This document shows positions 5,521-30,714 of a stretch of 32,000 bases of DNA, one piece after another (position 1 is the stretch's first letter; every line of letters starts with the position of its first letter). The stretch is from Pseudodesulfovibrio mercurii. GTDB taxonomy: Bacteria > Desulfobacterota > Desulfovibrionia > Desulfovibrionales > Desulfovibrionaceae. Under the pieces are notes generated by a model. The model was not told where the DNA came from and ran no database searches. It worked only from the letters and a program-made list of their open reading frames with translations. A program made the translations under genes and the position numbers. Where the stretch lies: the NCBI RefSeq assembly GCF_000189295.2, contig NC_016803.1, positions 2,730,001-2,762,000 on the forward strand, written 5' to 3'.

Positions 5521-5600
5521 AGAACAGGGTCGTTTCCCGGTCTCCTTATGCATCGGGAGTGCCAATTCACGGGTATCGAAGCACTGTGGGAGCTGCGTTC

Positions 5601-8407: not shown

Positions 8408-11400
8408 TCAGTCCCGAGGCCCGAAGTATGCGGACAGGCAGCCGTTGAGGTGATTTTTCACGGTTCGCGACAATCGTTTGATCCCCAATATGTTCGCCAC
8501 GTCTCGGACCCTGTCGTCACTGGCGGCGAGTCCCGGATGGGCGGCGATGAGCCCGAATATCTCGTGCCGGGAGATCTCGGTGGCGCTTCGGCCCTCTATG
8601 GAGCGGAACGGCACGGTTTCCCGGCAGCTCCCCGGAGCCCAGATGAAGGTCGTCCCGGCCTCCGGGCGGCGTTCTTTTCCGTCCAGGCAGGCATCGATCC
8701 GCTCCCTGATCCTGGCCCCGGTCCGTTTCCATCCATGGGCCTTGCAGATGGTCCGGGCCAATCGGTTGGCCTCGATGGGCCCTTCGGCTGCGACGAGAAC
8801 GTCGATCATCCGGGCCAGGATCGGGGTGTAGTCGGGGTCGAAAAACCGGTTCGCGTCCGGCTGGACCGGCCGGTTGACGGCGGCCTCTTCCTCCGGGGCG
8901 TCCGCTGAAGGCGTTTGCTCCGGTTCCGCAGGGGCGACCGTTTCCGGGCCCACCGGATTCGGGGACAGGTCCTCCGTCCGCCCGATTCCGGCATGGAGCC
9001 GCCGTTGCGGGGCGGGCGGGGCGACCGTCGGGCCGGCCATGCCGGCGGCGAGCCCACGGGGAAGGTCTGGCCATTCCCGCCGCGCCTCCGAACGGCTCTC
9101 GGCCCGGGCCGCTTCCTCCTCCTCCCGCCGCCGGGACGCCTTGAGCAGTCCCTCCAGTTCCTCATGCACCCGTTGCAGCGCTTCGGACGGATTCATGAAC
9201 CAATCCGCGGACCAGATGCGGAGGATGTTCCATCCGAGATTGCGCAGCACGGCCTCGCGGATTTCGTCGCGGTCCCGGGCTGTTGCGGAATGATGGTAGG
9301 TCGCGCCGTCGCACTCGACGCCCGCGAGATAGGCCCCGGCATGGTCGGGGTGGACCACTCCGAGATCGATCCGATACCTGGAGACCCCGATCCGGGGCCG
9401 CACTTGCCACCCCCTGGCCTCCAGGGCCGCCATCACCGCCTCTTCGAACGGGCTCTCGGCATCCTCCGTCGAATCGGCGTTCATGGCGGGCAGGGCGATC
9501 GGGCCGTTCTCGGCGTACTCCAGGAAGTTCTTGAGATGGGCCACGCCGAGGGCGTTGGTCCTGGAAGTATCCATGTCGTCGGCGTCGATGGAAGAGAAAA
9601 CGTGCATCTCGCGGCGGGCCCGGGTCACGGCGACATTCAGGCGTTTTTCGCCGCCGTCGCGGTTCAATGCGCCGAAGCTCATCGACATCTTCCCGGCTCC
9701 GTCGCGGCCGAAGGTGACGGAGAAGCACATGATGTCGCGCTCGTCTCCCTGGATGTTCTCCAGGTTCTTGACGATGACCGGCTCTTCCCGCTCGTCGCTG
9801 AAATACCATTCCAGGTCCGGGTTGGACCGCCTGGCCTCGTCGAAGAGATTGAGGATCAGTTCCTGTTGCTGGATGTTGAAGGTGATGACCCCGAGCGTGG
9901 GACGGTCCCCCTCGGGCCGTTGGAGCCAGCTTTCCAGGCGCGATTGGGCGAAGCGCACGATCTCCCGCGCCTCCTCAAGGTTGGTGCGGCCCGTTCCCCG
10001 CGCATAGGTCCCTTCGTTCCTGTGGAGGACCAGGGCCTTCGATTCGGTCGCGGGCGATGGAAAGGTGATGAGTTCGCCGTGGTAATAATGGTGGTTGGAA
10101 AAGGCGATCAGCGACTCGTCGCGGCTGCGATAGTGCCAGTTCAACCGGATCGGCGGCAGGCCCGCCGCATCGGCCTCCTCGAGAATGCTCGGCAGGTCCT
10201 TTTCGTATTCGGCCAGGTCCTCCGCATCCTCGTCGTCGGTGCGGCCGAAAAAGTTGGTGGGGGGCAGCTGTTTCGGGTCGCCCACGATGATGGATTGCCG
10301 CGCCCTGGCGATGGCCCCGACCGCATCCCAGGTCGTGATCTGCGAGGCCTCGTCGAAGATGACCACGTCGAACTGCGTTTGATCGGCAGGGAGATATTGC
10401 GCCACGGACAGCGGCGACATCAACATGCACGGCGTCAGCTTGGTGAACGTGGTCGGCATGCCTTCGATGAGTTTGCGGATGGAGAGGCTCGGCCGTTGCA
10501 GGCCGAGCTGGTGGCGCAGCAATCCCAGCTCGGACCGGCGGGGCACGGCGTTCCTGGTGGGCAGGTCATGGGAGACATTCCTCAGGACCTGGTCGGCGGC
10601 CAGCGCCCGCACCGTTCTGTCGCGCCGCCTGAATTCCTTGATCAGGTCCTCGTGGGACCAGTGGCGGAAACCCCGGAGTTCGGAGCTGGCGTCCAGGGCC
10701 AGGGGCAGCCACCATGTGAAGTAGGCCGCGCGGAAATCGGCGCGGGCATCCTCTATCTCTCCGTCCCGGAGGGCGTCCAGGAAGGCGCCGAGCCCCAGCG
10801 TCCTGGCCTCTTCCCTGACGGCCGCCCATCGGGTCCAGTCCGCCAGTTGCGCCCTGTGGTCGACGAGGAGGCGGAGGTCCCCGGCCAGGGCCTCCAGGGA
10901 GGTCGCGTGCGGTTCGCCCCCGGCGTGGGCCGAGTAGGCGTCGCGGGCGTCCTGGAATCTCGCCAGCGCGGAGTGGAACTTCTCGGCCAGGAGCGCCGCC
11001 TCGGGTTTGTCTCTCCGGAGCAGGGCCTCCAGCGTGTCCGCGAAACGATTTGCATCCGAGGCGTGCCGCCGCACATCGTCGAGCGCCCGCTGCAGTTTTT
11101 CCGTCTCTCTCAGATAGGCGGCGACCTGGGTTCCGTCGGTGTCCTCGTGCCGGAAGACCGGGAGGTTGGCCAACTCGCTCCGATCGACGGTTTCGAGATT
11201 GTCGCGGAGCCGCCTCAGGGGCTCTATCTCACCGGCCACGTCGACCCTGCCGTCCGTTGCGTAGCCCTGGAGCAGACGGGTGACCCGGCGGCGCGCCCAG
11301 GCGGAGAATGGCCACATCCGGGCGTTGGCCTCCCGCCATTGCCGGTCGATGTCCTCTATGGGGAGGCGCCGCAATGCGGAGTTTTCGTAATCGGCCGACA

Positions 11401-14281
11401 AGCCGGAGCGCGCCTGGCGGATGGCGGCGATGGCCGTGTCCAGGGACGCGGCGGCCTCTTCCAGGCGGCCCAGTTCCGCGTCAACGACGTTGCCGTAGTC
11501 CTGCTCGGAGGAGATTCGGCAGACTTCGTGGAAGCGGCGCAGGCTGTCGATGCGTTCGGGATCGTTTTCCCCGGCATCGGGCAGGCCGATGCAGTCGGCC
11601 AGGGCGTCCGCCGCCTCCTTGAGCGGGGGGATCGCGGAAAGGACGCCCTCGGCGCGCTCCATCAGGTCGTTCTCCCATCGGTACGACCATTCCCTAGCCC
11701 CGACGCTGTCGAATCCCCGGCAGTCGCGGACGATGGGGTAGACCCTGGCGGCCCGGACGGCCGTGTCCTCCAGCCTGGCGAACATGGCCGGATCGTGCGC
11801 TCCGGGGTTGTCGAATGTAACCGTGAATTCTCGGCGACGGCCCACCGCCATCCCGATGGCCTGGAAGATGCTGAAGCCGTGGCTGCCCGGGGCGTGCAGC
11901 TGCTCGACGTATTCGTTGAGGCGGTCGCGCGTTTCCCGGAGCCGCTCCGTCTCGCTATGCCAGGCGTTCGCGGAATGGGCTTCGCTCCGTTCCCAGGCGG
12001 CCCCCAGCTGCGCCAATACCCGTTTGCGGTTCGCCTTGTTGGAGTGGAGTTCGAGGCAGACGCTGCCCAGTCCGTAGGCCTTCAGCCTGCGGTAGACGAC
12101 GTCGAGGGCCGCGGCTTTCTCCGCGACGAAGAGGACGCGTTTCCCGATGGAAAGGCATTGGGCGATCACGTTCGCGATGGTCTGGCTCTTCCCGGTTCCC
12201 GGAGGGCCGATGACGATGAAGTCGTATCCCTTCATGGCGGCCACGACCGCGGCCAGCTGCGAACTGTCCGCGGGCAGGGGCGTCAGGAGTTCCCGGGGGG
12301 AGACGTTCTTGTCGATCTCGTCCGGGATGGGGAGGCAGGCCCCGCCGCACGCCTGCTCGAAGGGCGTTTCGGGCGAATCGATGAGGTGCTTGACCAGGCG
12401 GTTGTTTTTCAGGTCGTCGGTCCGGTCCACCAGGTCCTTCCACATCAGGTACTTGGCGAAGGAGAAGGTGGAGAGGGCCGCATCCTCCACGACTTCGAAG
12501 CCGGGGACGTCCCGCACGGCCCGGCGCATGCGGTCGAAGATCGCCGGAACGTCTATGCCCGCGTCATCGACGGGGAGTTCCCCCTCGAGCGACTGGACCT
12601 TGAGCCCGAAGTCCCGTTGCAGGAATTGCAGGAGCGTGGCGTTGATGCGCACGTCGTCCTCGTGGTGCGTCAGCGAGAAATGGGATCGGGCCGAGCTGCG
12701 TTTGAGCGTGACCGGGAGCAGCAGGATCGGGGCCCGGCAGCTCGTCGGATCGGTTTCCGTCTTTTTCCACCTGAGGAAGCCGACCGCGAGATAGAGGGTG
12801 TTGGCGCCGCCCTCGATCATTTCGCTGTTGGCCTTGCGGTACAGGGTGACCAGGCGGTTGCGCATGTCGTTCCCGGTGAGCGGGATGCAGAGCTGTCTGC
12901 GCTCCAGGGCGTTTTGGGCGAACTCCTCGTGTATGTCCTTCCCGTGCTGTCGGCGGTAGAGCTCCGGGTCCCGCGCGCCGATGGGATTTTCATCCTTCAG
13001 GGAAATGATCCGCAGGGCCTTTCCTTCCGCCAGCATGTCCTCGAGTTCGGGCAGATTCGGACAGAGCACCGGCACGGTCTGCCTGGTGTCCCTGAAATTG
13101 AGCAGCCGGTTGCGCAGGGTCAGGTCGAGCAGTTTCCGCTGCCAGCGGTCGATCCTGCCCTGAGGCGTCCGCGGGGCCTCGTCCACGATTTCGCCCGGCA
13201 GCAGCCCGAAGTCCGGCTCGGGGGGCAGCGCCGCCGGAGCCGTTTCCTCGATGGTTCCGGCTTGCGCCCGTTCCGTCTGGTGCGAGGCCAGGGGCGTGAT
13301 GCCCGCGAAGCGGGCCCGCCGGATGTCAACGGCCCGTTCGAAGTCGGTCTCGTTTCCCTCGCCGAGCTGGGCCTGGGCGTTCCGGACCGCCTGGGCGAAG
13401 TCCGCGACTGGGCGCGTCGTGACGAGGGTCGTCTCGAAGGCGATGAATTCCCGCGCGGCAATGGCCTTCCGGAGTTCGACCACGTCGGGCTCCTCGATGG
13501 AAGGCAGGGTCTTGTCCGTGAGCCATACCCCGGCGAAGGCGTGTCCCTTGGTGAAGATGACGACCGGGTTGAGCCCCGCCGCCTCCAATGCGCCGGCGAA
13601 AAGCAGCGATCCGTCCAGGCAGGTGACGAGCCCTTGGTCCAGAATCCGTTTCGGGCCGCGAATCTTCTGCCCGGTTCGCTCGAACGAGGCCGGAGGCTCC
13701 GCATAGCTCAGGGTCATCCCCGTGACGGCCGACCAGATCGCCGCCGCGAGCATGTAGGCGCGTTTGGGGTCCCTGCTCTGATAGCCGTCCAACGCCCCCT
13801 TCCGGCCGCTTGCCTCCAGCAGCATGCTCGCCCGCTTGCAGATCCCCGCCACGGCCGGATCGTTGGGCGAGACGAAGGCCGCGAGGATGCCCGCCATTTC
13901 CCCGACGCCGCCCCATTCGTCGCGGGCGAGCAGCCGCAGGGGCAGCGTCCGTTCCGCCAGGACCGCGTCCCCCCGCCTCAGCCGGAAGTCGAGCTGCCCC
14001 TGTTCCGCCTCGTCGAGGCCGTCGAAAAAGGCGAAGTCGCTCTCCAGCCGCAGATCGGCAAGGGAGACCTCGTCATAGGCGCCGATCCTGTCGATGACCC
14101 AGGTCTTGTCTCGGCAGAATCGGGGATGGGGATCGAGTTCCAGGGTCAGGTCGTCAAGGGGCTCGTCCGAGGTGTTGCGGATCGTGATGCTGCGCAGGAT
14201 GGGCACCATGTTTTGCGCGGAGGCGTGGTTGACGCATTCAGCGTAGGCGATGTGCAGATCCGGGGTGGTCGGTCTATCCAT
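8408..14281 (-). CDS. 1957-aa multidomain protein: transglutaminase-like N-domain, DUF4011-like region, Upf1-type SF1 helicase, Vsr/DUF559-like endonuclease fold, DUF3320-like C-terminus
   Basis: GAGGGGG RBS. A Cys/His pair sits in LVTCLDGS...TKGHAFAGVW (Cys codon about 13619..13621). Helicase motifs are IGPPGTGKSQT (12185..12208), VVIFDEASQ, IIVGDPKQLPP and RLNVAVTRARREMHVF. The nuclease-like block is RGWQVRPRIGVSRYRIDLGVV...GVECDGATYH...LRNLGWNILRIW (about 9182..9415). An acidic/Pro linker is followed by YTPILARMIDVLVAAEGPI... Confidence 0.95.
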   Translation of the reverse strand: MDRPTTPDLHIAYAECVNHASAQNMVPILRSITIRNTSDEPLDDLTLELDPHPRFCRDKTWVIDRIGAYDEVSLADLRLESDFAFFDGLDEAEQGQLDFRLRRGDAVLAERTLPLRLLARDEWGGVGEMAGILAAFVSPNDPAVAGICKRASMLLEASGRKGALDGYQSRDPKRAYMLAAAIWSAVTGMTLSYAEPPASFERTGQKIRGPKRILDQGLVTCLDGSLLFAGALEAAGLNPVVIFTKGHAFAGVWLTDKTLPSIEEPDVVELRKAIAAREFIAFETTLVTTRPVADFAQAVRNAQAQLGEGNETDFERAVDIRRARFAGITPLASHQTERAQAGTIEETAPAALPPEPDFGLLPGEIVDEAPRTPQGRIDRWQRKLLDLTLRNRLLNFRDTRQTVPVLCPNLPELEDMLAEGKALRIISLKDENPIGARDPELYRRQHGKDIHEEFAQNALERRQLCIPLTGNDMRNRLVTLYRKANSEMIEGGANTLYLAVGFLRWKKTETDPTSCRAPILLLPVTLKRSSARSHFSLTHHEDDVRINATLLQFLQRDFGLKVQSLEGELPVDDAGIDVPAIFDRMRRAVRDVPGFEVVEDAALSTFSFAKYLMWKDLVDRTDDLKNNRLVKHLIDSPETPFEQACGGACLPIPDEIDKNVSPRELLTPLPADSSQLAAVVAAMKGYDFIVIGPPGTGKSQTIANVIAQCLSIGKRVLFVAEKAAALDVVYRRLKAYGLGSVCLELHSNKANRKRVLAQLGAAWERSEAHSANAWHSETERLRETRDRLNEYVEQLHAPGSHGFSIFQAIGMAVGRRREFTVTFDNPGAHDPAMFARLEDTAVRAARVYPIVRDCRGFDSVGAREWSYRWENDLMERAEGVLSAIPPLKEAADALADCIGLPDAGENDPERIDSLRRFHEVCRISSEQDYGNVVDAELGRLEEAAASLDTAIAAIRQARSGLSADYENSALRRLPIEDIDRQWREANARMWPFSAWARRRVTRLLQGYATDGRVDVAGEIEPLRRLRDNLETVDRSELANLPVFRHEDTDGTQVAAYLRETEKLQRALDDVRRHASDANRFADTLEALLRRDKPEAALLAEKFHSALARFQDARDAYSAHAGGEPHATSLEALAGDLRLLVDHRAQLADWTRWAAVREEARTLGLGAFLDALRDGEIEDARADFRAAYFTWWLPLALDASSELRGFRHWSHEDLIKEFRRRDRTVRALAADQVLRNVSHDLPTRNAVPRRSELGLLRHQLGLQRPSLSIRKLIEGMPTTFTKLTPCMLMSPLSVAQYLPADQTQFDVVIFDEASQITTWDAVGAIARARQSIIVGDPKQLPPTNFFGRTDDEDAEDLAEYEKDLPSILEEADAAGLPPIRLNWHYRSRDESLIAFSNHHYYHGELITFPSPATESKALVLHRNEGTYARGTGRTNLEEAREIVRFAQSRLESWLQRPEGDRPTLGVITFNIQQQELILNLFDEARRSNPDLEWYFSDEREEPVIVKNLENIQGDERDIMCFSVTFGRDGAGKMSMSFGALNRDGGEKRLNVAVTRARREMHVFSSIDADDMDTSRTNALGVAHLKNFLEYAENGPIALPAMNADSTEDAESPFEEAVMAALEARGWQVRPRIGVSRYRIDLGVVHPDHAGAYLAGVECDGATYHHSATARDRDEIREAVLRNLGWNILRIWSADWFMNPSEALQRVHEELEGLLKASRRREEEEAARAESRSEARREWPDLPRGLAAGMAGPTVAPPAPQRRLHAGIGRTEDLSPNPVGPETVAPAEPEQTPSADAPEEEAAVNRPVQPDANRFFDPDYTPILARMIDVLVAAEGPIEANRLARTICKAHGWKRTGARIRERIDACLDGKERRPEAGTTFIWAPGSCRETVPFRSIEGRSATEISRHEIFGLIAAHPGLAASDDRVRDVANILGIKRLSRTVKNHLNGCLSAYFGPRD

Positions 14282-14439: not shown

Positions 14440-16011
14440 TCAGCCCGCCGGGGGACGGGCGGGTGGTTTCGCCGCTCTCGCCCGCCGGTTCTGTTCGTCC
14501 AGCCAGTTGAGGACATACGCCCAGCAGCGGGGGCTGGGTTCGCCGTTGTGGCGCAGGAAGAGCTGGCCGACGTGGGCGTTGCCCCTGCCTCCCCGCAGCT
14601 CCAGGGTGGCCCGTTGCGGGTAGAGGACGCGATAGATGGTGCACAGTCCCGCCTCCACCAGGTCCGCGTAGTTCCAGACGCAGTGATCCTGCCACCGGCC
14701 CTCCTCCAGGAGCTCCTCCGGCGTCCGTATGGGGATGATGACGCCGTCGCTCATGTAGGGCGGCCGGGGAAAGACGGTTCCCCACCGGCCCCGGTTCTCC
14801 CGGAACCAGGCCATCCGCCGGACCGCGTTCGCCCAGCGGGCGTGCAGGTGTTGCAGGGCCTGCACGGTCGGGCAGGCCCGGACGACCTGTCCGGCGTCCT
14901 GGATGCCCAGGCTTTTGCCCAGGCCGACCGTGTCCATGTATTCCCCTCGGACCAGGCTGAGGGGCCGGGGAGAGGGTTCCGGAGCCAGGAAGCGCCGCTT
15001 GAGGAATTTTGCGGCCAGGATGTCGTAGCGCCCGTCCAACTCGCCGAGCCGGTCCAGGTCGATGACCGGATAGTGGCGCAGCTGCCCCACCGCCTCGGCA
15101 TTGCACAGGAGCCGTTCCGCGTCCCGGAACGTGGCGCTGTCGTAGCTGTGGCTGCGGGTTTTCCTGAGCAGGGCGGGCGTGACCCCGGTCCCGTCGCCGA
15201 AGAGCAGGCGGATGAGCGCGGTCTGCTTCATCTTCAGCAGATCGGGTATGTCCCCGGTCAAGCGGCGATTGCGGACCAGCCGGGCGGCGACGAGCCAGAG
15301 CAGGGTGGGATTGCTTGTCGCCAGCTGCACCGCGTAGTCGGTCCGGCGCATCATCCGGAGGATGGTGAACTGCCGCCATGTGAATTGCCCGGCCGCCTCC
15401 CTGACGTGGGCCGGAATGGGGCGCAGGAAGTCCTCCAGCCATTGCGCCTGTGGGACCGGCAGCCCGTGCAGGCCGAGCAGCGGCAGGTCCGGGTCCCGCT
15501 CGTCGCGCCACCAGCCCCAGAACGGGGCCGTCGCCTGTCGCCGGGGCGCGGGGGCGTCGGAATTCGGCCGCCGGGACCAGCCGTGCAGGCGCCCCCAGCG
15601 TTCGAACATCAGCCCGTCGGCCCAGGAGGTGATCCGGGCGACGCCGTCCGTTTCGGAGCGGAGATGCAGATATTCCGGTTGGTGCCTGTGGCGGAAGAGA
15701 CGGATGATTCCTTTGTGCATGGCGCCTTGTGCGGGGTTGTTCCGGCTCGGGCGGAAGGGCGCGGCAAACCGGGTGTGTGATGGAGACGGGCAGGAGGGGA
15801 TGGGCGCGGCGTCGGCGGGCGCATCCGCCGCTCCGCATCGGATGGCGAGGCGTTCGCGCCCCCCGAAGCCGTGGCCGGGGAAGCCGTCGCCGTTTTCGGT
15901 CAGAGGGAGCCGGGCGGTCCCCGGCGGGGTTGCCGTGGGTTCGGCCTCCCGCTCCGGTTCCACGGGCGAGTCGAGGGCCTTTTGCCGGGAGCAGAGGGTA
16001 ATGAACAGCAT
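14440..16011 (-). CDS. PcfJ-like domain protein
   Basis: ATG 16011 has GGAG 8 nt upstream; an alternative start is ATG 15720. The C-terminal block PEELLEEGRWQDHCVWNYADLVEAGLCTIYRVL...ATLEL resembles the PcfJ-like EGxxMxHCV core. The 774-aa form in the track runs through the upstream genes. Confidence 0.7.
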   Translation of the reverse strand: MLFITLCSRQKALDSPVEPEREAEPTATPPGTARLPLTENGDGFPGHGFGGRERLAIRCGAADAPADAAPIPSCPSPSHTRFAAPFRPSRNNPAQGAMHKGIIRLFRHRHQPEYLHLRSETDGVARITSWADGLMFERWGRLHGWSRRPNSDAPAPRRQATAPFWGWWRDERDPDLPLLGLHGLPVPQAQWLEDFLRPIPAHVREAAGQFTWRQFTILRMMRRTDYAVQLATSNPTLLWLVAARLVRNRRLTGDIPDLLKMKQTALIRLLFGDGTGVTPALLRKTRSHSYDSATFRDAERLLCNAEAVGQLRHYPVIDLDRLGELDGRYDILAAKFLKRRFLAPEPSPRPLSLVRGEYMDTVGLGKSLGIQDAGQVVRACPTVQALQHLHARWANAVRRMAWFRENRGRWGTVFPRPPYMSDGVIIPIRTPEELLEEGRWQDHCVWNYADLVEAGLCTIYRVLYPQRATLELRGGRGNAHVGQLFLRHNGEPSPRCWAYVLNWLDEQNRRARAAKPPARPPAG

Positions 16012-16052
16012 GGCATGATCTCCAGGTACGCCGGGGTCGGAGTCCCGGCGGT

Positions 16053-16559
16053 TCAAGGTTGTCGTCCCCGGCGGGCCGCAACGCGGTCCTCCCGTCCTTC
16101 GCGCGCGGCCAGCCGGTCGAGCAGGCCCGAGAGGTGCTCCCGCAATTCGGCGTTGATCCGCAGCCGCCGCCGGGCCGCGGCCGCATACTTCGCCGTCCGC
16201 TCCCGTTTGGCCGCATCCATCCAGAAGGGCAGCCATTTCGCGCCCGGGGACCCTTCCGGCCGGGGCGGGTCCAGGGCCGCGATGAGGTGTCGGACCTCGC
16301 CGACGAGTTGGCAGCGGAGTTCGCCGACGTCCGAAACGGCCTTCCGGCCTTGCTTCAGGTCCGTCATGCGGCCGTCCAGTTCCCTGCGCAGGAGGTCGAG
16401 GCGTTCGATGCCTTCGGCCACCTCGTCCGAGGTCCGGGCCTGCGCGTCCAGGAGACGGGCCGAGCGGAGCACGCCCGCGTCCTCTTCCCGTCCCTCGTGA
16501 ACGACCACGAGGCCGAGGAGGAGGGAGAGGGAAACGGCCAGGATGGTCAGGGCCTTCAT
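16053..16559 (-). CDS. secreted or membrane-anchored coiled-coil protein, paralogue of 3832..4320
   Basis: 168 aa with an AGGAGG RBS and the signal/anchor MKALTILAVSLSLLLGLVVV. It carries KWLPFWMDAAKRER (16197..16238) at the same residue position (108-121) as its paralogue. Its ATG overlaps the stop of the transglycosylase gene. Confidence 0.8.
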   Translation of the reverse strand: MKALTILAVSLSLLLGLVVVHEGREEDAGVLRSARLLDAQARTSDEVAEGIERLDLLRRELDGRMTDLKQGRKAVSDVGELRCQLVGEVRHLIAALDPPRPEGSPGAKWLPFWMDAAKRERTAKYAAAARRRLRINAELREHLSGLLDRLAAREGREDRVAARRGRQP

Positions 16560-17164
16560 GGCCTGTCCTCCTGCCGCAGCAGGCGGTGGAACTCCCGGAA
16601 CACCCGCCGGATATGCCGCCGGGTCTCAAGCGGGTAGTCGCGTTCGCCCCTGCGGACGTGGGTGGGTCCCCAGTTGTAGCCCGCCAGGGCGAGGGCCGGG
16701 TCCTTGAATTCCACGAGCAGTTCCTTAAGGTAGCGGGTTCCGCCGAAGATGTTCTGGCTCGCATCCCACGGGTTCTCGACGCCCAGGTATTCGGCCGTCG
16801 CGGGCGTGAGCTGCATCAGCCCCATGGCGTTGGCCGGGGCCGGGGACTTGGCCCGCGGGTTGAAGTCGGACTCCACCTTGATCACGGCCTCGATGAATCG
16901 GGGATGGACGCGATATTTCCGGGCGGCCGCGCGGATGATCGGGCGATACCGGGCCGCTGCGTCCCGTTCGGGTTTCGCGGCGACGGGCCTGATGGCGCGC
17001 GGCTTGCGGGCCTCCTTGCCCACGGTCATGTTCCGGATGAAGGCCGTGCAGTCCCGGATCTCCAGCAACCAGTCCGCCCGGGCCGACGTCGGGAAGACGA
17101 TCAGCAGCGCGACGAGCAGCGCGAAGGCCGTCCAGCCTGTCCTGTGGTGCGTGTTGTCTGTCAT
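16556..17164 (-). CDS. lytic transglycosylase (SLT domain) with an N-terminal signal/anchor
   Basis: 202 aa with a CAGGAG RBS. It shows the SLT signature IKVESDFNPRAKSPAPANAMGLMQLTPATAEYLG ... AGYNWG and the N-terminal hydrophobic segment WTAFALLVALLIVFPTSARA. Confidence 0.9.
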   Translation of the reverse strand: MTDNTHHRTGWTAFALLVALLIVFPTSARADWLLEIRDCTAFIRNMTVGKEARKPRAIRPVAAKPERDAAARYRPIIRAAARKYRVHPRFIEAVIKVESDFNPRAKSPAPANAMGLMQLTPATAEYLGVENPWDASQNIFGGTRYLKELLVEFKDPALALAGYNWGPTHVRRGERDYPLETRRHIRRVFREFHRLLRQEDRP

Positions 17165-23248: not shown

Positions 23249-23293
23249 CTCGGCTCCTTGTTGCGTGCTTGTGTTGGGTTCCACCCCGCCATA

Positions 23294-23309: not shown

Positions 23310-23706
23310 GGTTGCTGTGGAAAGGGGAGGTTCCATTTAATTGCCTGGAATTATGAGTAGTGTTGCATGAGGCGAGCGCGCTGGAGCCCCGGGGGAAGCC
23401 CGGAATCCGGCGCAATGGGAGCGGACGGGCTCACACGGTTCCGGGGCGTGAGGATGGACGGGTGGGCCGCGTGCCCGTTTCCGGGGGGGCGTTCGGTGCG
23501 GAGGGAGCGGGCCGCCTCAGGCCGCGGCGGCCGGGGCCATGGCCTTGCGGGGATGAAGCCTTGTCCGGATGCTCCGGTTCATCGCATGGGGTTGTCGGCC
23601 TTGGCTTTCTTGACTATGTTCGACCAACCTGCTTGCGCGAATCGATAATGTTGCACATGGTTTTCGCTATCGCGGCCCGGTGCGCAGGCGGCATGGAGAG
23701 GGGGGT

Positions 23707-26700
23707 ATGGAAAGAGACGAGTTCCTGGCCCTGGTCGGCCAGTTGGTGAAGAGCGACGATCCAACGGTGCGCGGCCTGGGCCAATGCATGCGGAACGTGT
23801 TCGGCAAACGGGAGGTGTTGCCCTGCCGCCTGCTCGACGAGGTGGACGTCCTCAGCCGGGCGGTGGATCTGTACTTTCCCCGGCCGTTCGTGGCCCGGTA
23901 CAATGCCTACAAGGAAGCCGAGGAGATGCTGGCCGCCCTGGCGGACTCGGACGACCTCAGCTATGCGGCCGCGCTGAAGGACGCGGCCGACAAGTTGATC
24001 CTGCTGTGGAAGCTGGTCTTGAACTTCCTGCCGTTTCTTTTCGTCGGGGCCATCCAGCGCATGGGCGGCAAGGCGCTGGCGGAGGCCGCCGAGGCCGAGT
24101 TGCAGGAGGTGTTGCAGACCTACCGGACGTTGTTCCACGAGAACGCCACGCTCAACGAGGGGGAGCAGGTCGCCTTCGTTCTGCTCCTTCTGAAGCTTTT
24201 CCGGAAACTCGACCGGCACGGCGCGCTCGGGGACAGCTTCATCCTGCATCCGCTGCTCCAGGCGCGGGGCGGGTTCGACGAGGTCTTTCCCCAGCCCTTC
24301 GGTCCGATGCTGCAATTGATCCACCAGTTCCGGAACAAGAGTTTTCACGCCTTCATCAGCGAGCGGCGACGGGACGAGGTCGCCCCGGTCAATACCATCA
24401 TGGCCTGCGTCTGTTTATACGTGGTGAAGTGCCTGCTGGGCGTTTTCGAACGATACGGGCTGTACTGGGTGACCGGGATCAACGCCCCGTCCTCGGACCC
24501 GGTCGTGACGGCCCTTTCCTTTGCCGGGGCCGCGCCCAAGGAAAAGCGGTTCAAGCTGACGAGGACCCCGTGCGCGGATTCGGAGCGCCTGGCCCTCAAC
24601 GATCTGTATCTCATCGACAACTCGAAGGTCATCACCATGGGCGGGGCCCAGCCGGTCGAGCCCATCGGGCCGACGGATTACCTCTGTCTTTCGCCGTTCG
24701 TCATCTACACCATGGAATCCCTGGACAAGGAGGTCCTCGACGGCGGAGCGTCCGCCGACCGCCCCCTGGATATCTGCGTTCTCCAGCGGTACAACGAGGT
24801 CAAGCAGTTCTTACGTTACCTGGCCCTGACGGGCCAGGTGGAGTTCTGCCTGTCCCGCGACGACCGTTTCCGGCATTTCTTTGAGAAGTACAGCCTGTTC
24901 TTCAAGAACATAGAGGGGTTGTTCGACGACGTGGGCCATGCCCCGGCGCAAGAGGCGGCCACGCCCGGCGTCGACTCAGCGGCCGCCGCCATGGCGCAGC
25001 TGCGCAAGCGGACCTGGCAGGTGTCGTGCAACCACCTGGCGGCGCTGCTCCAGGTTCAGGACTACGACGAAGACGGCAACCGCATCGTCGAGAATCCCGG
25101 TTTCGGGTTCCAGTACAAATACAATCCCGACCTGTTCGTCTTCCCGGAGGAGGGCCGTTTCTACGACGGGTTCTATGAGAGCGGGAAGCGGGCCATCGCC
25201 TTTGTCGGGGGCTCGGGCATCGGTAAATCCAGCCTGCTGTGCCACCTTTTCCTGGATGAGCGCAGGGCGGGCCGACCGGCGGTCTTTCTCGACGCCAGGC
25301 GTTTCCGTTCGGCCAGGCTGGACGAGTTCCTGGAGGAAAGCATCATCGTCCGCGCCCGAAGGGACTGGCGGATGGAGAACGCGGACCGGTTGCTCGGCGA
25401 GGCCGGGGTCCGGCTGGTGGTCTTCATCGACGCCGTCAACGAGTTCGGCGGCCCCGGCGGCCCGCTGAAGCTCATTCAGGAGATCATGGACGCAGCCCGC
25501 GACCAGTCGGCGCTCGCCAACGTCAAGTTCGTCTTTTCCTGCCGCGTGGAAACCTGGGAGCAGTACCGGAAATCCGTCAACAACCCCAAGGTGCTTCTGG
25601 AGGACAGCGTCTTCGTGGGCCAGGGGGGCGAGGCCGTCCGGGTCAACGGGTTCGAGTCGGAAACCCTGCGCGCCACCCTCTTCGATCGCTATGCGAGTTG
25701 TTTCAACCTGGTTCCCGCCACCTACGAGGAGCAGGGAGAGCCGCTGAAGGAACTGATCTGTTCCCCGTTCATGATGCGGATGATCGCGGAGGTGTACGCC
25801 AACACCTCGGAGGATGGCGCCTCGCATCGCAGGAGAAAACGCCGCAAGATACCGAAGAAGATAAATTATTTTAAACTGTTTTCCCTCCTGACGCCCCGCA
25901 AGATGGCGGATGCCGAACGGTTGTTCCCCGAGAGGGAGGTCTCGCACGACCTGCTGGAGCGGCGGTTCGACGAGTGCCTGTACGTCTTCGCCGAACTGAT
26001 CTATCGCCAGCTCATCGCCGGCGGCGACAGCTCTCCCCTGGCCATTTCCGGGGAGCGCCGGGACTCCGTGCGGATCGACGAGCTGAGCCGGAACCCCGCG
26101 TTCGGCGAGTTCATGAAGGGCCCGGTCGAAGGCGCGTCCGTCAGCATCTTCGAGGCGTTGATCCAGGTCGGCCTCATCGAGTCCGTGTACCTGCCCGAAC
26201 TCAACCGCCACGGCGAGGTCAAGTTCGGCAGGGCCTACAAGTTTTTCCACGACCAGTACACGCAGTACTGGCTGAGCGCCGTCTACAACCGGTCCGACAT
26301 CCTGGGCCGCCCCAGTCCTCGGAAGCTGCGCCGCGATCCGGAACTGCGCCGGACCACGGTGGCCAACATCCAGGACCTGATCGCCCGCTCCCAGGACGCC
26401 ATGGTCCTGGGCGGCGCGCTGGGCCACTGGCTCTATTCGATCATGTCCGACGGGCGGCCGCGCATTCAGGACGACCTGTGCCACCTGTTCAACGCCATAG
26501 CCGACACCAAATCCTCGCATGTCCGGTACATGACCGGCATGTTCCTGCACGGACTGCCCGAAAAGGGGGTGGTCTCATCGCGCGAATGGTACTCCCGGCT
26601 TTGCCGGAAGGGGAGCTTCGCCCTGCGCAGGCTGCTGACCGAGCACGTGGTCTACCTGTGGCCCAACATTGCGCCGGACGATTTCCGTGCGCTGATAGAG

Positions 26701-28206
26701 TCCCTGGGCAGGGAGGAGGACGACGTCCTGCTGCGGGAACTCGGGGACTTCCTGGCCACCCGTTTCGGCTCGGAGCCGGAGATGGTCCTGGAGTTTCTGG
26801 ACGGCATCCTGCCGAGCCTCGAAAAGCTGGACGTCGCCACTTCGACCCGGCTGTATGCGCTCAAGTCGAAGATGCACATCTATTTCAAGGTGATCACGAA
26901 ATTCGCGGTCAAGGCCGCCTTGGACTGCTGTGTGGACTGGGAAAAGATGCGGATGCTCAAGGAGTTGCTGACGCGGAAATACAGCTACGTGTTCAGGGCC
27001 TGCCTCGACGAGTCTCCCACGATGATCATGCGGGGAGTCAGGAGTTGGGTCTTTTCCCTGCTGGATGGGGTCGGGCTCAACCAGTGGGACCAGGCCATCG
27101 GCCCGCACGGGAACAATTGCTTTTTCGTGGAATTCGACGGGCTGCGGCAGCGCGACGTGCTCCACGACTTCTATCCCTACTGCGTGCAGCTGTGCAACGG
27201 CGAGTTCGACGAGCTCTCCCTGGAGCCCGATTCGGAGTTCCGGCAGGCGTGTCTGTCCCTGATCGACTACCGGCCGCGCAGCGTCATCGGCTACGTGGCC
27301 ACGGTGGTGCTCGCCGCGGTCCTGCATCGGGATGACCGCCAGATGGAGAGCGTGGTCAACGAACTGCTCGCCAGGAAGTCCGAGGCGGCCTTTTTCTTCT
27401 GCAACTACCTGCTGACGGCCCTGGGTCAGCTCAAGGTGGAGCGGTGCGCCCTCCTGTTGCCGATCATGAAGAAGGACTTCATCCCCGCGCTGGTCAGCGA
27501 GGACCAGGACGGCGAGAGCTACCTGGGCTTCCTGTTCATGGCCGCGGCGGACATGAAGGAGTTGTGGCCGGACGCGAAGGTCATCCTGGACGAACTGACC
27601 GAGCGGCTGGAGGAGATGAAGCCGGAGGCCCTGTTCTCCTTCGCCAAGGCGTTGCGCAGCCTGTGTTTCTATTCCGAGCCGCAAATGGGGCGGACCATCG
27701 CCACCCATCTGGCGCGGACGTATCTTTCGGACGCCTCCGACAACCGTCGCGAGTTCGCCAAACGGGTGCTGGCGGCCATGCTGGTGCGCGATCCGCAGAT
27801 GCTCTCGGCCATCCTGGAGTGCACGGGCAAGGGCCGCGCCCTGGAGGCCGAGGTGCTGACCTTCGTGGACGGTGAAGTGCTTCGGCTCAAGGACCAGGTC
27901 AGCTATCAGAGCGCCTGGAACAAGGTCTTCCTCACCGCGGTGACCGACAATCCCAAGGTGATGCACTATGCCTGCCGCGTGTTGCTGGGCGGTCTGGTCC
28001 AGTCGAACAGCGTCACGGAGTTCTCGCGGGAATTTCGACGGTTCGTCGTGGAGTTGGTCCGCGGCTACCTTACGGATGAGGGGCTTGACCGCCGGAAGAC
28101 GTTCACCGTACAGGAAGCGTTGTCGGAAAGTCTGGCGAGCGCCTGCTACGGGATGGACGGCGAGCCATGGACCGACGTCGAGGACAGGGTTGAAAAACAG
28201 CAGTGA
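23707..28206 (+). CDS. NACHT-type STAND NTPase (1499 aa) with a ~480-aa N-terminal region carrying an RNxxxH motif and a ~900-aa helical-repeat C-terminus
   Basis: ATG 23707 is preceded by GGAGAGG. Walker A is GGSGIGKS (25207..25230), Walker B is LVVFIDAVNEF (about 25414..25446), and a TSR-like FVFSCR lies downstream. The N-terminal region contains LIHQFRNKSFHAF (RNKSFH at 24331..24348). The C-terminal half is rich in Leu/Ala/Glu/Arg and looks like helical repeats. Confidence 0.9.
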   Translation: MERDEFLALVGQLVKSDDPTVRGLGQCMRNVFGKREVLPCRLLDEVDVLSRAVDLYFPRPFVARYNAYKEAEEMLAALADSDDLSYAAALKDAADKLILLWKLVLNFLPFLFVGAIQRMGGKALAEAAEAELQEVLQTYRTLFHENATLNEGEQVAFVLLLLKLFRKLDRHGALGDSFILHPLLQARGGFDEVFPQPFGPMLQLIHQFRNKSFHAFISERRRDEVAPVNTIMACVCLYVVKCLLGVFERYGLYWVTGINAPSSDPVVTALSFAGAAPKEKRFKLTRTPCADSERLALNDLYLIDNSKVITMGGAQPVEPIGPTDYLCLSPFVIYTMESLDKEVLDGGASADRPLDICVLQRYNEVKQFLRYLALTGQVEFCLSRDDRFRHFFEKYSLFFKNIEGLFDDVGHAPAQEAATPGVDSAAAAMAQLRKRTWQVSCNHLAALLQVQDYDEDGNRIVENPGFGFQYKYNPDLFVFPEEGRFYDGFYESGKRAIAFVGGSGIGKSSLLCHLFLDERRAGRPAVFLDARRFRSARLDEFLEESIIVRARRDWRMENADRLLGEAGVRLVVFIDAVNEFGGPGGPLKLIQEIMDAARDQSALANVKFVFSCRVETWEQYRKSVNNPKVLLEDSVFVGQGGEAVRVNGFESETLRATLFDRYASCFNLVPATYEEQGEPLKELICSPFMMRMIAEVYANTSEDGASHRRRKRRKIPKKINYFKLFSLLTPRKMADAERLFPEREVSHDLLERRFDECLYVFAELIYRQLIAGGDSSPLAISGERRDSVRIDELSRNPAFGEFMKGPVEGASVSIFEALIQVGLIESVYLPELNRHGEVKFGRAYKFFHDQYTQYWLSAVYNRSDILGRPSPRKLRRDPELRRTTVANIQDLIARSQDAMVLGGALGHWLYSIMSDGRPRIQDDLCHLFNAIADTKSSHVRYMTGMFLHGLPEKGVVSSREWYSRLCRKGSFALRRLLTEHVVYLWPNIAPDDFRALIESLGREEDDVLLRELGDFLATRFGSEPEMVLEFLDGILPSLEKLDVATSTRLYALKSKMHIYFKVITKFAVKAALDCCVDWEKMRMLKELLTRKYSYVFRACLDESPTMIMRGVRSWVFSLLDGVGLNQWDQAIGPHGNNCFFVEFDGLRQRDVLHDFYPYCVQLCNGEFDELSLEPDSEFRQACLSLIDYRPRSVIGYVATVVLAAVLHRDDRQMESVVNELLARKSEAAFFFCNYLLTALGQLKVERCALLLPIMKKDFIPALVSEDQDGESYLGFLFMAAADMKELWPDAKVILDELTERLEEMKPEALFSFAKALRSLCFYSEPQMGRTIATHLARTYLSDASDNRREFAKRVLAAMLVRDPQMLSAILECTGKGRALEAEVLTFVDGEVLRLKDQVSYQSAWNKVFLTAVTDNPKVMHYACRVLLGGLVQSNSVTEFSREFRRFVVELVRGYLTDEGLDRRKTFTVQEALSESLASACYGMDGEPWTDVEDRVEKQQ

Positions 28207-28219
28207 GTCAGGAACCAAT

Positions 28220-29284
28220 ATGAGTTTTCTATGCAAAAAATTCATGCAGGGTTTTGATAGGACGTATCTTTCCATCAAGAATAAGCACAAGACATGCAGC
28301 CTGCATCTGAACCCCGACCCCTTCGACGGGCGGGTATACACCATCGACGAATTCTACGAGGGATATAAGAAGTATTTCGACGATCCGTTGGGTTTCTACA
28401 ACGATTACGCCCCCGAGGACGGCATATGCCTCCGGGACGGTCGGCACCACCGGGACACGTCCGAAGCCCAGGCCCCTTTCCGCTACATGGTGTTCGATTC
28501 GCCGGTCCCTTCGCCGTGGGAGGAGAACAACCTGGTGCCGTTCAAGTGGTTCACCAACCCGGAAAAACCATCCCGGACGCTGTTGCTTTTCGCGCCGGGA
28601 TGGGGACGGACCAGCCAGTCCTTCGAGGAGGTCTGGTGCCGCAAATTGCAGGAGATGGGGGTCGATTGCGGCCTGACCACCGTGCCGTACCATCAGGCGC
28701 GCACGCCACAGGGCTCGTTCTCCGGGGAGTACTGGATCAGCGCGAACCTCTTTTTCACCATCGCCAACTTCCGGCTCTACACCGCGGAGTTGCGGCTGCT
28801 GTTCCAATACATGAAGCGGCGGTATGACTACGTCGGGTTCATCGGCATGAGTTCCGGCGGGTTCCAGACCGCCCTGGCGGCCAATTGCGAACCGGCGGAC
28901 TTCCTGTTCCCGATGATCACCGGCGGGAACCTGGCGGACATCACCTGGGACGGACTGATAACGACCTACGTCCGGCAGGACCTGGAGGCCAAGGGCGTGA
29001 CCCGTGAGCAGCTCGCCCGGGTCTGGAGCGTCACCGACGAGTGCGTTCTGGGCAGGCACTGCAAGGCCCGGTACATCAAGCAGTACATCTCCATGTACGA
29101 CGAGGTGGTGGGGACCGAGAATCAGCTGGCCATGTGGGAGGCCATCGGCAGGCCGGACAGGATGATGGTCCCGTCCGCCCACTACTCCGTGTATTTCTTC
29201 GGCAACCGGATCCTCAGGGACATCGCCCGCATGGTGGCCGAGAACGTGGCCGGGTGGAGCCGCTCCCCAGGGTCGGCGGCCTAG
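28220..29284 (+). CDS. alpha/beta-fold hydrolase (354 aa)
   Basis: ATG 28220 is preceded by AGGAA at 5 nt and lies 13 nt after the NTPase stop. The nucleophile elbow is GMSSGG (28844..28861). The upstream 84 codons in the track overlap the NTPase gene. Confidence 0.85.
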   Translation: MSFLCKKFMQGFDRTYLSIKNKHKTCSLHLNPDPFDGRVYTIDEFYEGYKKYFDDPLGFYNDYAPEDGICLRDGRHHRDTSEAQAPFRYMVFDSPVPSPWEENNLVPFKWFTNPEKPSRTLLLFAPGWGRTSQSFEEVWCRKLQEMGVDCGLTTVPYHQARTPQGSFSGEYWISANLFFTIANFRLYTAELRLLFQYMKRRYDYVGFIGMSSGGFQTALAANCEPADFLFPMITGGNLADITWDGLITTYVRQDLEAKGVTREQLARVWSVTDECVLGRHCKARYIKQYISMYDEVVGTENQLAMWEAIGRPDRMMVPSAHYSVYFFGNRILRDIARMVAENVAGWSRSPGSAA

Positions 29285-30456
29285 CGTCCGATCTTGCGCT
29301 TGCCGCTGGCCCAGCAGCGGCGCAGGGCCTGGGCGTTGTTGCCCAGGATCAGCCCCACGTGCCTCCAGCTGAGGTTCCCCTGATGGGCGAGGTGGCTGCG
29401 CGCCGAGGCGATGAGCCGGAGGCGGTCCTCGCCCCGGAGCCCCTCCTCGGTGATCTTGCGCAGGGACAGGTACCGCTTCCACAGGGCGTTCGAATCGGCG
29501 TCGGCCCTGCTGGGCTCGATGCCCTGGATCATGGTTTCCACCTCCGCCGGGGTCGCCTGCTCCCGCAGGACGGCCAGGGCGCGCTCGGTGTCGCGCAGCA
29601 GGGCGTCGATGAGCTTGGTCGCGGTGGCGGAGGGGCGGCCGAGGAAATCGGGGCAGATCTTGAGATACCGCGTCCCGATGCGATCGTCCCCCTCGTGCAG
29701 GGCCCAGTCGAAGGCCGCGGCCATGACGTTCTCGAGTTCCCGGATGTTGCCGGGCCAGTCGTGGCCGGCCAGCGCCTCCAAGGCATCCTCGGAGATGGCC
29801 ATCCCGTCGATGTCCATTTTTTCGCACTGGAACTTCAGGAAATGCCGGGCCAGGGCGCGGATGTCCCCCTCGCCGCGTTCGCGCAACGGCGGCAGGCACA
29901 TCTCGTGAACGGAGATCCGGTAGAACAGGTCCTCGCGGAACCGTCCTTCCTCGACGAGCGCCCGGAGATCCCTGTTGGTCGCCAGGATGACTTTCAGATC
30001 CGCCTGAAAGGTCTGGGTCCCTCCGACGCGGCGGTAGCTGCCGTCCTGGAGGAACCGCAGCAGCCGGGGTTGCTGTGAAAGCGGCATTTCGCCGATTTCG
30101 TCCAGGAAGAGGCAGCCGCCGTCCGCCGCCTTGACCAGGCCGTCCGTGGCCCTGTCGGCGCCGGTGTACGCCCCCTTGTCGTGCCCGAACAATTCGGAGG
30201 AGAACAGGGCGTCGGTGAAGTCGGCGCAGTTGAGGCGGACGATGCGGCCGCCGTATCGGGACAGGCTCCGGATGTGGTCGGCCAGGAGCTCCTTGCCCGT
30301 GCCCGACTCCCCGTGGATCAGGACGGGACGGTCGGACAGGGCCGCGACCTTGGCGAAGTCGCGGACCCGCTCCATGGCGGCGCATTCGCCGATCATCGCC
30401 TTGACCGGGGACGGATTGCGGAAGAGCCTCGCCTCGTTGGTGCCGGTCCTGATCAT
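29281..30456 (-). CDS. sigma54-dependent transcriptional activator (bacterial enhancer-binding protein) lacking an N-terminal sensory domain
   Basis: 391 aa from ATG 30456, with an AAGGAGG RBS. Walker A is GESGTGKE, followed by SSELFGHDKGAYTGA (the GAFTGA loop), Walker B CLFLDEIGEM, and WPGNIRELEN. The C-terminus has a Fis-type HTH (GNLSWRHVGLILGNNAQALRR). Only about 20 aa precede the AAA+ core. Confidence 0.95.
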   Translation of the reverse strand: MIRTGTNEARLFRNPSPVKAMIGECAAMERVRDFAKVAALSDRPVLIHGESGTGKELLADHIRSLSRYGGRIVRLNCADFTDALFSSELFGHDKGAYTGADRATDGLVKAADGGCLFLDEIGEMPLSQQPRLLRFLQDGSYRRVGGTQTFQADLKVILATNRDLRALVEEGRFREDLFYRISVHEMCLPPLRERGEGDIRALARHFLKFQCEKMDIDGMAISEDALEALAGHDWPGNIRELENVMAAAFDWALHEGDDRIGTRYLKICPDFLGRPSATATKLIDALLRDTERALAVLREQATPAEVETMIQGIEPSRADADSNALWKRYLSLRKITEEGLRGEDRLRLIASARSHLAHQGNLSWRHVGLILGNNAQALRRCWASGKRKIGR

Positions 30457-30714
30457 GATGTCCCCCTCCTTGTCTGTTTCCGATCCATCGCGTGAGGGAC
30501 CTCCCCTCACACCAGGGCCTTTTGGCGGCCAACGGAAACTCGCGTCGGTTTTGTCGGGAAAACAGGCGGGAGATATCAGGTGATTTACATAAATGGCTTG
30601 ATATGTTCGCTGGTTGGGAGTTAACACAAGACAGTGTATTTTCGGGGACGGCAGCGTGTTCCGTTCCGGCCCGCCTGTCAGGCGCCATCGGACGGGGGTG
30701 CGGGGACGGCCCGG

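Follow-up and report, generated by a model that had tools for sequence, protein, structure and literature searches.

What does a NACHT-type NTPase do with a serine hydrolase encoded directly behind it, and is the N-terminal head of this NTPase a ribonuclease (RNase)? These questions are raised by two plus-strand genes in a 32,000-nucleotide (nt) stretch, in the following called the window, of the Pseudodesulfovibrio mercurii ND132 chromosome. The first open reading frame (ORF1, positions 23707..28206) encodes a 1499-amino-acid (aa) NACHT-type STAND NTPase consisting of a head, the NTPase and a family-specific C-terminal domain. Its start agrees with the NCBI annotation and its sequence is identical to DND132_2478 / WP_014323107.1, which NCBI labels "hypothetical" or "ATP-binding protein". 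The second (ORF2, 28220..29284, +) matches DND132_2479 with 100% identity, encodes a 354-aa ABHD18-like alpha/beta hydrolase and begins exactly 13 nt past the TGA of ORF1. By gene order and sequence comparison the STAND-hydrolase pair is real and recurrent; it is neither obligate nor bound to a HEPN-like head.

Judged at the level of its family, the sequence of ORF1 is that of a NACHT-type STAND NTPase. The NACHT module (nucleotide-binding, helical and winged-helix domains, approximately aa 470-870, 25114..26316, +) was placed by family-level matches to Pfam NACHT and to the Avs2 P-loop, and conservation of the core was assessed in an alignment of 30 family sequences. In the Walker A motif GGSGIGKS (aa 501-508, 25207..25230, +) G504, G506 and K507 were invariant and G501 and S503 at least 90% conserved. 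The Walker B motif VVFIDAVNEF (aa 571-580, 25417..25446, +) showed invariant D575, A576, N578 and E579, and R613 of the sensor-1-like FVFSCR (aa 608-613, 25528..25545, +) was invariant as well. A winged-helix-like string, FFHDQYTQYW (26242..26271, +), had at least 90% conservation at F847, H848, D849 and Y851; by inspection rather than by structure we take it to resemble the NLR winged-helix motif FxHxxxQE[FY] with its ADP-sensing His. The NACHT Walker B is said to have been defined by Koonin and Aravind in 2000 as D-[GAS]-x-[DE]-E. The ORF1 version is a D-A-x-N-E variant, which keeps the tiny residue as well as the Glu at the end and, family-wide, has Asn in place of the first acidic residue.

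Against Pfam NACHT (PF05729) ORF1 itself scored 16.6 bits, under the cut-off of 26.7 (E=0.007, aa 496-650, model positions 2-152 of 167), and 19 of the 30 family members matched this model at E<=0.01 (best 1.4e-9), making it the most frequent Pfam family. These matches and the NACHT-like motifs bore out the assignment made in an original prediction from the DNA letters, and every motif and ORF named there (Walker A, Walker B, FVFSCR, RNKSFH, GMSSGG and the 13-nt gap) was found where it had been placed. The sole solved relative of the NTPase was Avs2 (9o4e, 9e-9, about 90 residues around the P-loop), and the PADLOC Avs2 model (1.8e-9) was confined to aa 494-614. Membership in Avs2 was ruled out, because the PADLOC, NCBIfam and PDB matches to Avs2 cover the P-loop region only (NCBIfam NF041813, 18.5 bits versus a cut-off of 1000). 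The closest outgroups of the NTPase region were STAND proteins whose heads are of the SIR2, calcineurin-like phosphoesterase or nucleoside-phosphorylase (PNP) kind.

Relatives were collected by an exhaustive HMMER search with ORF1 residues 1-1200, which gave 298 proteins at E<=0.001. Of these, 50 reached E<=1e-30 and represent clusters at 50% identity. Word-indexed homology searches with full ORF1 and with the 30-sequence family alignment returned zero relatives, probably because ORF1 belongs to a 90%-identity cluster that has a 44-aa Rhodopseudomonas peptide as its representative. Approximately 16 representatives were collinear with ORF1 end to end at 28-35% identity, and a full-length homologue with 32% identity was encoded in L001. 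Another dozen representatives aligned only from ORF1 aa ~426-434 onwards and carried other N-termini. Heads of relatives that were not HEPN-like included TIR_2 (P0101, P0105), Ser/Thr protein kinase (P0115; L020, L022, L023, L036), a ~320-aa module without Pfam match (P0102, P0111, P0112) and, in P0131, a hydrophobic N-terminus that was read as transmembrane (TM) and likewise had no Pfam match. On this sequence evidence, the first ~430 aa of ORF1 are an exchangeable block on a constant core of NTPase and C-terminal domain. The head can be placed in effector position, as originally predicted, because this block is swapped among relatives for TIR, kinase and other modules with the break at aa 426-434.

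Scanning one genome per species yielded 22 STAND loci, from Acidobacteriota, Verrucomicrobiota, Eremiobacterota, Bacteroidales, Alphaproteobacteria and Burkholderiales. The STAND family is patchily spread across phyla, Desulfovibrionales included. Four loci (L028, L029, L030, L031) contained STAND homologues split by frameshifts into two to six frames, which are apparent pseudogenes; L028 and L030 were also without the hydrolase.

A hydrolase gene was located directly downstream of the STAND gene in the window and in L001/L002, L009, L012, L013, L014, L020, L022 and L023, with the gene order kept and the relatives showing gaps of -18 to +22 nt. Taxa with the adjacent pair were Desulfovibrionales, Acidobacteriota, Eremiobacterota, Bacteroidales and unassigned metagenome contigs. 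Seen from the hydrolase, a STAND gene was directly upstream in 11 of approximately 34 metagenome loci having enough upstream sequence. The 13-nt spacer of the window (28207..28219, +), between the ORF1 TGA and the ORF2 start, carries AGGA, and no terminator-like site was found in it. From the short gap, the absence of such a site and the similar gaps in relatives we infer that ORF1 and ORF2 are co-transcribed.

In a rough neighbour-joining tree of the core, the hydrolase-linked STANDs fell into three or four deep clades, one of which is kinase-headed (L009, L020, L022, L023, L036, L037), and the hydrolase-less STANDs into a proteobacterial clade plus a few others. Of 20 linked hydrolases, 15 formed two exclusive clades in the hydrolase tree, and these mirror the largest two among the STAND clades. 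The remaining ones (window/L001/L006, L014, L064) were found elsewhere in the tree, the window group and L014 beside stand-alone relatives. At L036:348-5891 a kinase-headed STAND and the hydrolase share one open frame, on a single contig for which an assembly error is possible. A further unusual arrangement was encoded at L006:3704-6061, where a 786-aa protein with an unrelated ~230-aa N-terminus followed by the C-terminal domain, and without the NTPase (33% identity over ORF1 945-1494), precedes a hydrolase 63% identical to ORF2. Because the pairing spans kinase-headed clades, the trees mirror each other in the two largest linked clades, and there are the L036 fusion and the L006 pair, the hydrolase is judged to be functionally tied to the NTPase/C-terminal core and not to the head. 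The original prediction had presented the hydrolase as dedicated partner of a HEPN-like head and had proposed to look at conservation of the pair. The partner is indeed recurrent, with conserved adjacency in several phyla, but it goes with the core, accompanies kinase heads, and is missing from many HEPN-headed relatives and lost in whole clades. In L023, the sister of L036, STAND and hydrolase are separate and the hydrolase itself is frameshift-split.

For the head, conservation was assessed among 21 heads that were 21-45% identical to that of ORF1. RNKSFH (aa 209-214, 24331..24348, +), the candidate HEPN catalytic motif, belongs to the best-conserved polar motif of the ORF1-type head, RNxxxH, in this alignment: N210 was present in 21/21, R209 in 19/21 and H214 in 20/21 heads, with the variants DNGAID in P0093 and KNILTH in one other member. 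When the first 480 aa were shuffled, 78% of the shuffled sequences had a generic Rx4-6H string, of which ORF1 has 9 copies, and only 1.8% had an RNxxxH string. The copy at aa 209 was the sole one of the nine in which R and H were both conserved in relatives. Besides the motif variant, P0093 (L093:1249-5727), which has lost the R and H and is the closest representative at 34% identity, showed a same-strand gene for a protein with TIR_2 and LRR (L093:73-1158) 90 nt upstream.

Anantharaman et al. (2013, PMC3710099) described that the HEPN Rx4-6H motif sits at the end of helix 3, that the residue after the R is mostly N, D or H, that helices 2 and 3 are characteristically separated by inserts, and that helix 2 of many HEPN families holds another acidic residue, typically in the form Ex3[KR]. 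All four of these descriptive features were recognized in the ORF1 head from the alignment and from AlphaFold2 (AF2) models, in which helix order only was compared. The model of aa 1-432 had a predicted local distance difference test score (pLDDT) of 82.9 and a predicted template modelling score (pTM) of 0.83; for aa 112-256 the pLDDT was 89.6. The HEPN-like core (aa 121-249, 24067..24453, +) contains helix 1 (121-145), helix 2 (151-170), helix 3 (198-214) and helix 4 (222-249), in the layout given in PMC3710099. RNKSFH lies at the C-terminal end of helix 3, and the insert between helices 2 and 3 (aa 171-197) contains two short helices. Glu151 at the start of helix 2 (24157..24159, +) is the candidate second acidic residue, and E was found at this position in 20/21 heads. 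The helix-2 consensus was E-x-[DE]-Q-R, with Q154 in 17/21 and R155 in 10/21 heads, so that Ex3R was present in about half.

A number of results speak against the HEPN assignment. ORF1 itself has Val at aa 155, and not Arg or Lys as expected at the Ex3[KR] position. The HEPN models of Pfam and PADLOC matched 0/21 heads, a profile of the head found no HEPN protein in the PDB sequences, and Foldseek against PDB with the whole head gave no meaningful match and no HEPN. With aa 112-256 nothing significant was obtained (E >=1.2, TM-score 0.27-0.30, root-mean-square deviation ~12 A). The four top-ranked of these insignificant matches were HepT (6m6w, 7bxo, 6m6u) and YutE (1ylm), and HEPN toxins accounted for 12 of the top 40 (E 1.2-8), yet these 12 trace to only about three distinct proteins. 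A BFVD search with the same residues returned nothing interpretable. Of the originally predicted HEPN head, the conserved RNxxxH closing helix 3, the insert and the helix-2 Glu have held up, and a significant profile or Foldseek match has not been forthcoming. On motif conservation and models, the ORF1 head is probably a divergent new HEPN family and a candidate RNase.

The HEPN-like core is preceded by an N-terminal helical extension (aa 1-118, 23707..24060, +; AF2 pLDDT mostly 88-94) with the motifs FPxPF (57-61) and F-LPF (107-110), whose P58 and P109 were invariant in the 21 heads. It is followed by a domain rich in beta strands in the AF2 model (aa 250-383, 24454..24855, +), possibly an OB-like barrel. 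This domain contains DYLxLTPF at aa 324-331, with D324, Y325, L328 and T329 at least 90% conserved and P330 invariant in the 21 heads. Foldseek gave weak OB/small-barrel matches only (C345C, ModE/ModG, designed OB). The domain would, on thin evidence, fit the HEPN-plus-OB combinations of PMC3710099. The head module ends with a linker helix and a low-confidence linker (aa 386-430, 24862..24996, +; pLDDT <50 at aa 412-432).

The opposite end of ORF1 is formed by a family-specific C-terminal domain of ~615 aa (~aa 885-1499, 26359..28203, +), presumably in sensor or partner-docking position. Its start was set to ~885 because fragments and shorter proteins align from ~885-955, and because of the 786-aa protein of L006. 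No Pfam, NCBIfam, PADLOC or PDB match was obtained for this domain, Pfam repeat families were found in it in 0/30 members, and hhalign comparisons between its quarters revealed no internal repeats. The original prediction of about 900 aa of helical repeats behind the NTPase had to be abandoned, as NACHT reaches to ~aa 870 and the remaining ~615 aa are without detectable repeats.

ORF2 is by sequence an ABHD18-like serine hydrolase with an intact predicted Ser-Asp-His triad. We found 92 homologues with 41-63% identity. The nucleophile elbow GMSSGG (28844..28861, +) contains Ser211 (28850-28852), which was invariant in 32 sequences, as were the candidate triad acid Asp294 (29099..29101, +) and the candidate triad base His321 (29180..29182, +); the roles of the latter two were assigned from conservation. 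Matches of ORF2 to Pfam ABHD18 PF09752 (E=0.009, 15.6 versus 21 bits) and to the NCBIfam RcgR family (5.9e-17, 61.8 versus 182 bits) were under the cut-offs, several homologues bear a precomputed PF09752 match, and in PDB ORF2 matched the uncharacterised 4z8z (1.9e-11). ABHD18 is a mitochondrial cardiolipin deacylase (PMC12173737), and RcgR, whose chemistry is unknown, represses plasmid transfer in rhizobia (PMC13055273). A stand-alone ORF2 homologue in L005 was flanked by genes for a fatty-acid hydroxylase and an acyltransferase. Because its relatives (ABHD18) are lipid deacylases, ORF2 most likely acts, as our best guess, on a membrane lipid or ester.

Many relatives carry further genes at this locus. 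An MFS transporter gene adjoins the STAND gene in 12/22 genome loci and in several metagenome loci; the transporters are 38-49% identical between phyla and occur in three arrangements, i.e. upstream in divergent orientation, downstream in convergent orientation, or in the same direction at the end of an operon. MFS-linked STAND loci were L012 (8001-17038), L013, L057, L062 and L074, and further MFS-linked loci were L007, L010, L015-L019, L024, L025, L027, L029, L064 and L091. Many loci encode, behind the STAND or hydrolase gene, a protein of ~800 aa, here called p819, with a soluble part of ~700 aa and two C-terminal TM helices, and four loci (L012, L013, L057, L062) had STAND-hydrolase-p819-MFS operons. 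Neither MFS nor p819 genes were found in the window clade and the kinase clade. For p819 and for a 601-aa partner in L019 there was no Pfam or NCBIfam match, and an 800-aa downstream partner in L010 had a weak spermidine-synthase-like match only. In one example of p819 (L092:14422-16878 = L025:12380-14836) an N-terminal VVIDHHFF string recalls the DHH phosphoesterase motif. Co-oriented downstream ORFs in proteobacterial loci were rejected as antisense artefacts of an opposite-strand MFS gene.

There is about an even chance that ORF1 and ORF2 constitute a two-gene NLR-like (bacterial NACHT) module, for which, from the sequence comparisons, an anti-phage or conflict setting would be the most likely one and a role in defence plausible. 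In such a module the head would be a divergent HEPN domain followed by the small beta-barrel, and ORF1 would rest as an ADP-bound monomer. Perception of a trigger by the C-terminal domain might then lead to nucleotide exchange and oligomerisation. The oligomerised heads would form a composite metal-independent RNase site from R209, N210, H214 and E151, as in HEPN dimers, and RNA cleavage would cause arrest of the cell or of the invading element. The hydrolase may work through the C-terminal domain, because it tracks the core under any head and because of the L006 pair and the L036 fusion. It could provide a second trans-acting output, or be an enzyme whose product or state is monitored by the C-terminal domain.

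Several findings weigh against such a defence module. A PADLOC search, which had been suggested with the original prediction, gave no system model for ORF1 beyond the P-loop region and none for ORF2. No relatives were detected on plasmids (72,556) or in phage records (50,697), and the neighbourhoods of six relatives consisted mostly of housekeeping or transport genes. MFS linkage, present in many relatives, is uncommon for defence systems. About two thirds of the hydrolase family stands alone, entire clades that retain the HEPN-like head are missing the hydrolase, and the mean column identity of 52% for the hydrolase versus 31% for the STAND fits a housekeeping-type substrate. On the favourable side are the PDC-S37/Hhe gene 9.4 kb upstream in the window, the patchy spread of the family and its frameshifted copies; a TIR-LRR gene lies beside P0093.

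Part of this evidence would be explained if ORF1 were a non-immune STAND, whose C-terminal domain senses an endogenous lipid or ester that is made or removed by the hydrolase and moved by the MFS transporter, and whose swappable heads (kinase, possible DNA-binding, TIR, HEPN-like) tune membrane or envelope physiology. We retained this explanation mainly because of the MFS/p819 linkage, with MFS genes beside the STAND in more than half of the genome loci and in three arrangements across phyla, and consider it doubtful. It would also agree with the Ser/Thr kinase heads, with the start of the ~320-aa head module, which reads by eye as a SARP/AfsR-type winged helix (no Pfam match), with the acyltransferase and fatty-acid hydroxylase beside the L005 hydrolase homologue, with the cardiolipin deacylase activity of ABHD18 (PMC12173737), and with the housekeeping-type neighbourhoods and the lack of relatives on the plasmids and phages searched. 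However, TIR heads and a conserved RNxxxH head are more typical of conflict systems than of metabolic regulators, and SIR2, PNP and metallophosphatase heads are present on the nearest NTPase outgroups. The patchy spread, fast sequence divergence and pseudogenised copies also disagree with it, as do the window clade and the kinase clade, which have neither MFS nor p819, and the known defence gene that lies near the pair in the window. A further, improbable reading is an undescribed NLR-like system centred on membrane lipids, in which the C-terminal domain docks a cardiolipin/phospholipid-deacylase-like hydrolase and to which many lineages add the MFS transporter and the 800-aa protein with two TM helices. 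In it the switch would either monitor lipid or envelope integrity, by guarding or sensing the hydrolase or what it produces, or have lipid deacylation as an output beside a new HEPN-family RNase head.

The head might also not be a nuclease at all, with RNxxxH binding a nucleotide, ligand or protein or the head being an adaptor, and the hydrolase being the catalytic output, for example by phospholipid deacylation. The lack of significant profile or fold similarity to HEPN families would be accounted for in this way, as would P0093, which retains the entire protein despite the loss of R and H, and catalytically inactive members are common among HEPN domains (PMC3710099). The hydrolase triad is invariant, alpha/beta hydrolases are partner effectors in other NTP-dependent conflict systems (PMC7159879), and membrane proteins (p819, YdjM and a TM protein) occupy the downstream slot in other relatives. 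We regard this possibility as unlikely: R, N, H and the helix-2 Glu are the HEPN RNase catalytic set and the most conserved polar residues of the head, entire clades have the head but no hydrolase, and the head is swapped for bona fide enzymatic effectors (TIR, kinase). That the two genes are chance neighbours, and the hydrolase a housekeeping enzyme sharing the ORF1 transcript, appears very unlikely. Most members of the hydrolase family are not found beside a STAND and the hydrolase is highly conserved, but adjacency in the same order at -18 to +22 nt recurs across phyla, the hydrolase and STAND trees mirror each other in the two largest linked clades, there is one in-frame fusion, and a protein with the C-terminal domain but no NTPase is paired with the hydrolase as well.

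The preferred reading, an NLR-like module with a conflict role, can be compared with described systems. According to a preprint by Kibby et al. (bioRxiv 10.1101/2022.07.19.500537), the heads of bNACHT proteins include HEPN, protein kinase, TIR and transcription-regulatory domains. Proteins of the bNACHT group and the ORF1 family have in common the tripartite build of head, NACHT and C-terminal sensor, TIR and kinase heads and, judged across the family, the NACHT motifs and Pfam matches. Unlike bNACHT, ORF1 is under the Pfam NACHT cut-off, and its head and C-terminal domain match no described domain model. The ABHD18-like partner, and in relatives the MFS transporter and the ~800-aa protein with two TM helices, are features of the ORF1 family that go unmentioned for bNACHT in the passages of the preprint that were searched. 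Avs2, the best PADLOC, NCBIfam and PDB match, also combines a STAND NTPase with an effector at the N-terminus and a long sensor at the C-terminus; the shared stretch is limited to ~90-120 residues at the P-loop, the two proteins are unrelated in head and sensor, and the Avs2 system consists of one gene.

STAND NTPases with a HEPN head are not unfamiliar. They were described in 2013 (PMC3710099), where an N-terminal HEPN is sometimes combined with an OB-fold RNA-binding domain, and HEPN is listed for bNACHT in the preprint mentioned above. ORF1 resembles the HEPN-STAND proteins of PMC3710099 in having an RNxxxH helical domain and a small beta-barrel, then the NTPase. It differs in that its head is outside the Pfam HEPN families from that work, that its barrel lies between head and NTPase and is not C-terminal, and that a hydrolase partner is absent from those descriptions. 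Among the insignificant top structural neighbours of aa 112-256, HepT (6m6w, 7bxo) and YutE (1ylm) were joined by HEPN-MNT toxins (8yuf, 8xdj, 8xeh). Minimal HEPN toxins share with the ORF1 head an Rx4H where helix 3 ends, with a polar residue after the R; they are, however, stand-alone proteins of ~130 aa neutralised by MNT antitoxins, whereas the ORF1 head sits on an NTPase.

ORF2 has the alpha/beta fold, the GxSxG elbow and the Ser-Asp-His triad in common with ABHD18/Cld1-type cardiolipin lipases and RcgR, but a link to a STAND NTPase is known for neither ABHD18 nor RcgR. Kaur et al. (2020, PMC7159879) reported alpha/beta hydrolases in MoxR-vWA and GTPase-centred conflict systems, where they are tied to a caspase-like peptidase. 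Like these systems ORF1/ORF2 is NTPase-centred, diversifies its effectors and has a separately encoded alpha/beta hydrolase; in contrast to them ORF2 is tied to the NACHT/C-terminal core and the peptidase is absent. The STAND-hydrolase pairing was in none of the catalogues searched here. What appears to be new are a head family that is invisible to profile libraries, the C-terminal domain, and the ABHD18-like partner, which MFS and p819 join in relatives. The NLRs of animals and plants presumably descend from bacterial NLR-like proteins, a group in which the majority of heads, sensors and accessory genes are uncharacterised. Should the partner be an enzyme that is guarded or that processes a ligand, or else a second effector, this would be a rare bacterial NLR with a dedicated metabolic-type enzyme and would offer a tractable two-gene system for studying how the switch is triggered. 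If the family is instead a regulator of lipids or transport, NACHT switches with RNase, TIR and kinase outputs would be employed outside immunity.

Turning to the setting of the two genes, a Shine-Dalgarno-like GGAGAGGGGGG was read from the sequence ahead of the ORF1 ATG (23695..23705, +), and a consensus scan (9/12) gave a weak sigma-70-like promoter candidate, TCGACC-18-GATAAT, 5' of ORF1 (23620..23649, +). A sigma-54-dependent activator gene (29281..30627, -), whose AAA+ core matches PspF/RtcR-type models, converges on the hydrolase gene with a 4-nt overlap with its 3' end. A sigma-54 promoter for ORF1, considered on account of this nearby activator, was rejected, there being no match upstream of ORF1; candidate -24/-12 elements were located at 21645-21660 (-) and 23294-23309 (-), ahead of minus-strand genes. 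G+C was 0.59 across the hydrolase gene (28001..29000) and 0.62-0.64 across ORF1, compared with 0.66-0.70 in most of the window, and the lower G+C of both genes is compatible with horizontal acquisition. The whole window contained no tRNA, no flanking repeats were found in 21000-32000, and none of the literature searched mentions DND132_2477 to DND132_2480.

The gene 9.4 kb upstream of ORF1 (8408..14281, -) is a known or candidate single-gene defence system. It encodes a 1957-aa helicase-nuclease with DUF4011, superfamily 1 (SF1) helicase, MTES_1575-type restriction endonuclease and DUF3320 domains, and the protein matches PADLOC PDC-S37 (E=0, 1204 bits) and Hhe (5e-169). Between this gene and ORF1 there are unrelated membrane or periplasmic-type ORFs on the opposite strand. 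Further away, a 746-aa ORF (5559..7799, +) showed in its C-terminal AAA+ region matches to the PADLOC IetA/TRIP13 models (5.5e-35, partial coverage); a 712-aa ORF overlapping it on the opposite strand was without matches. The window also encodes a 774-aa protein (14440..16764, -) with a PcfJ-like domain (Pfam E=2e-6), whose gene has the Hhe-like gene on one side and an ExbD/TPR-type membrane operon on the other.

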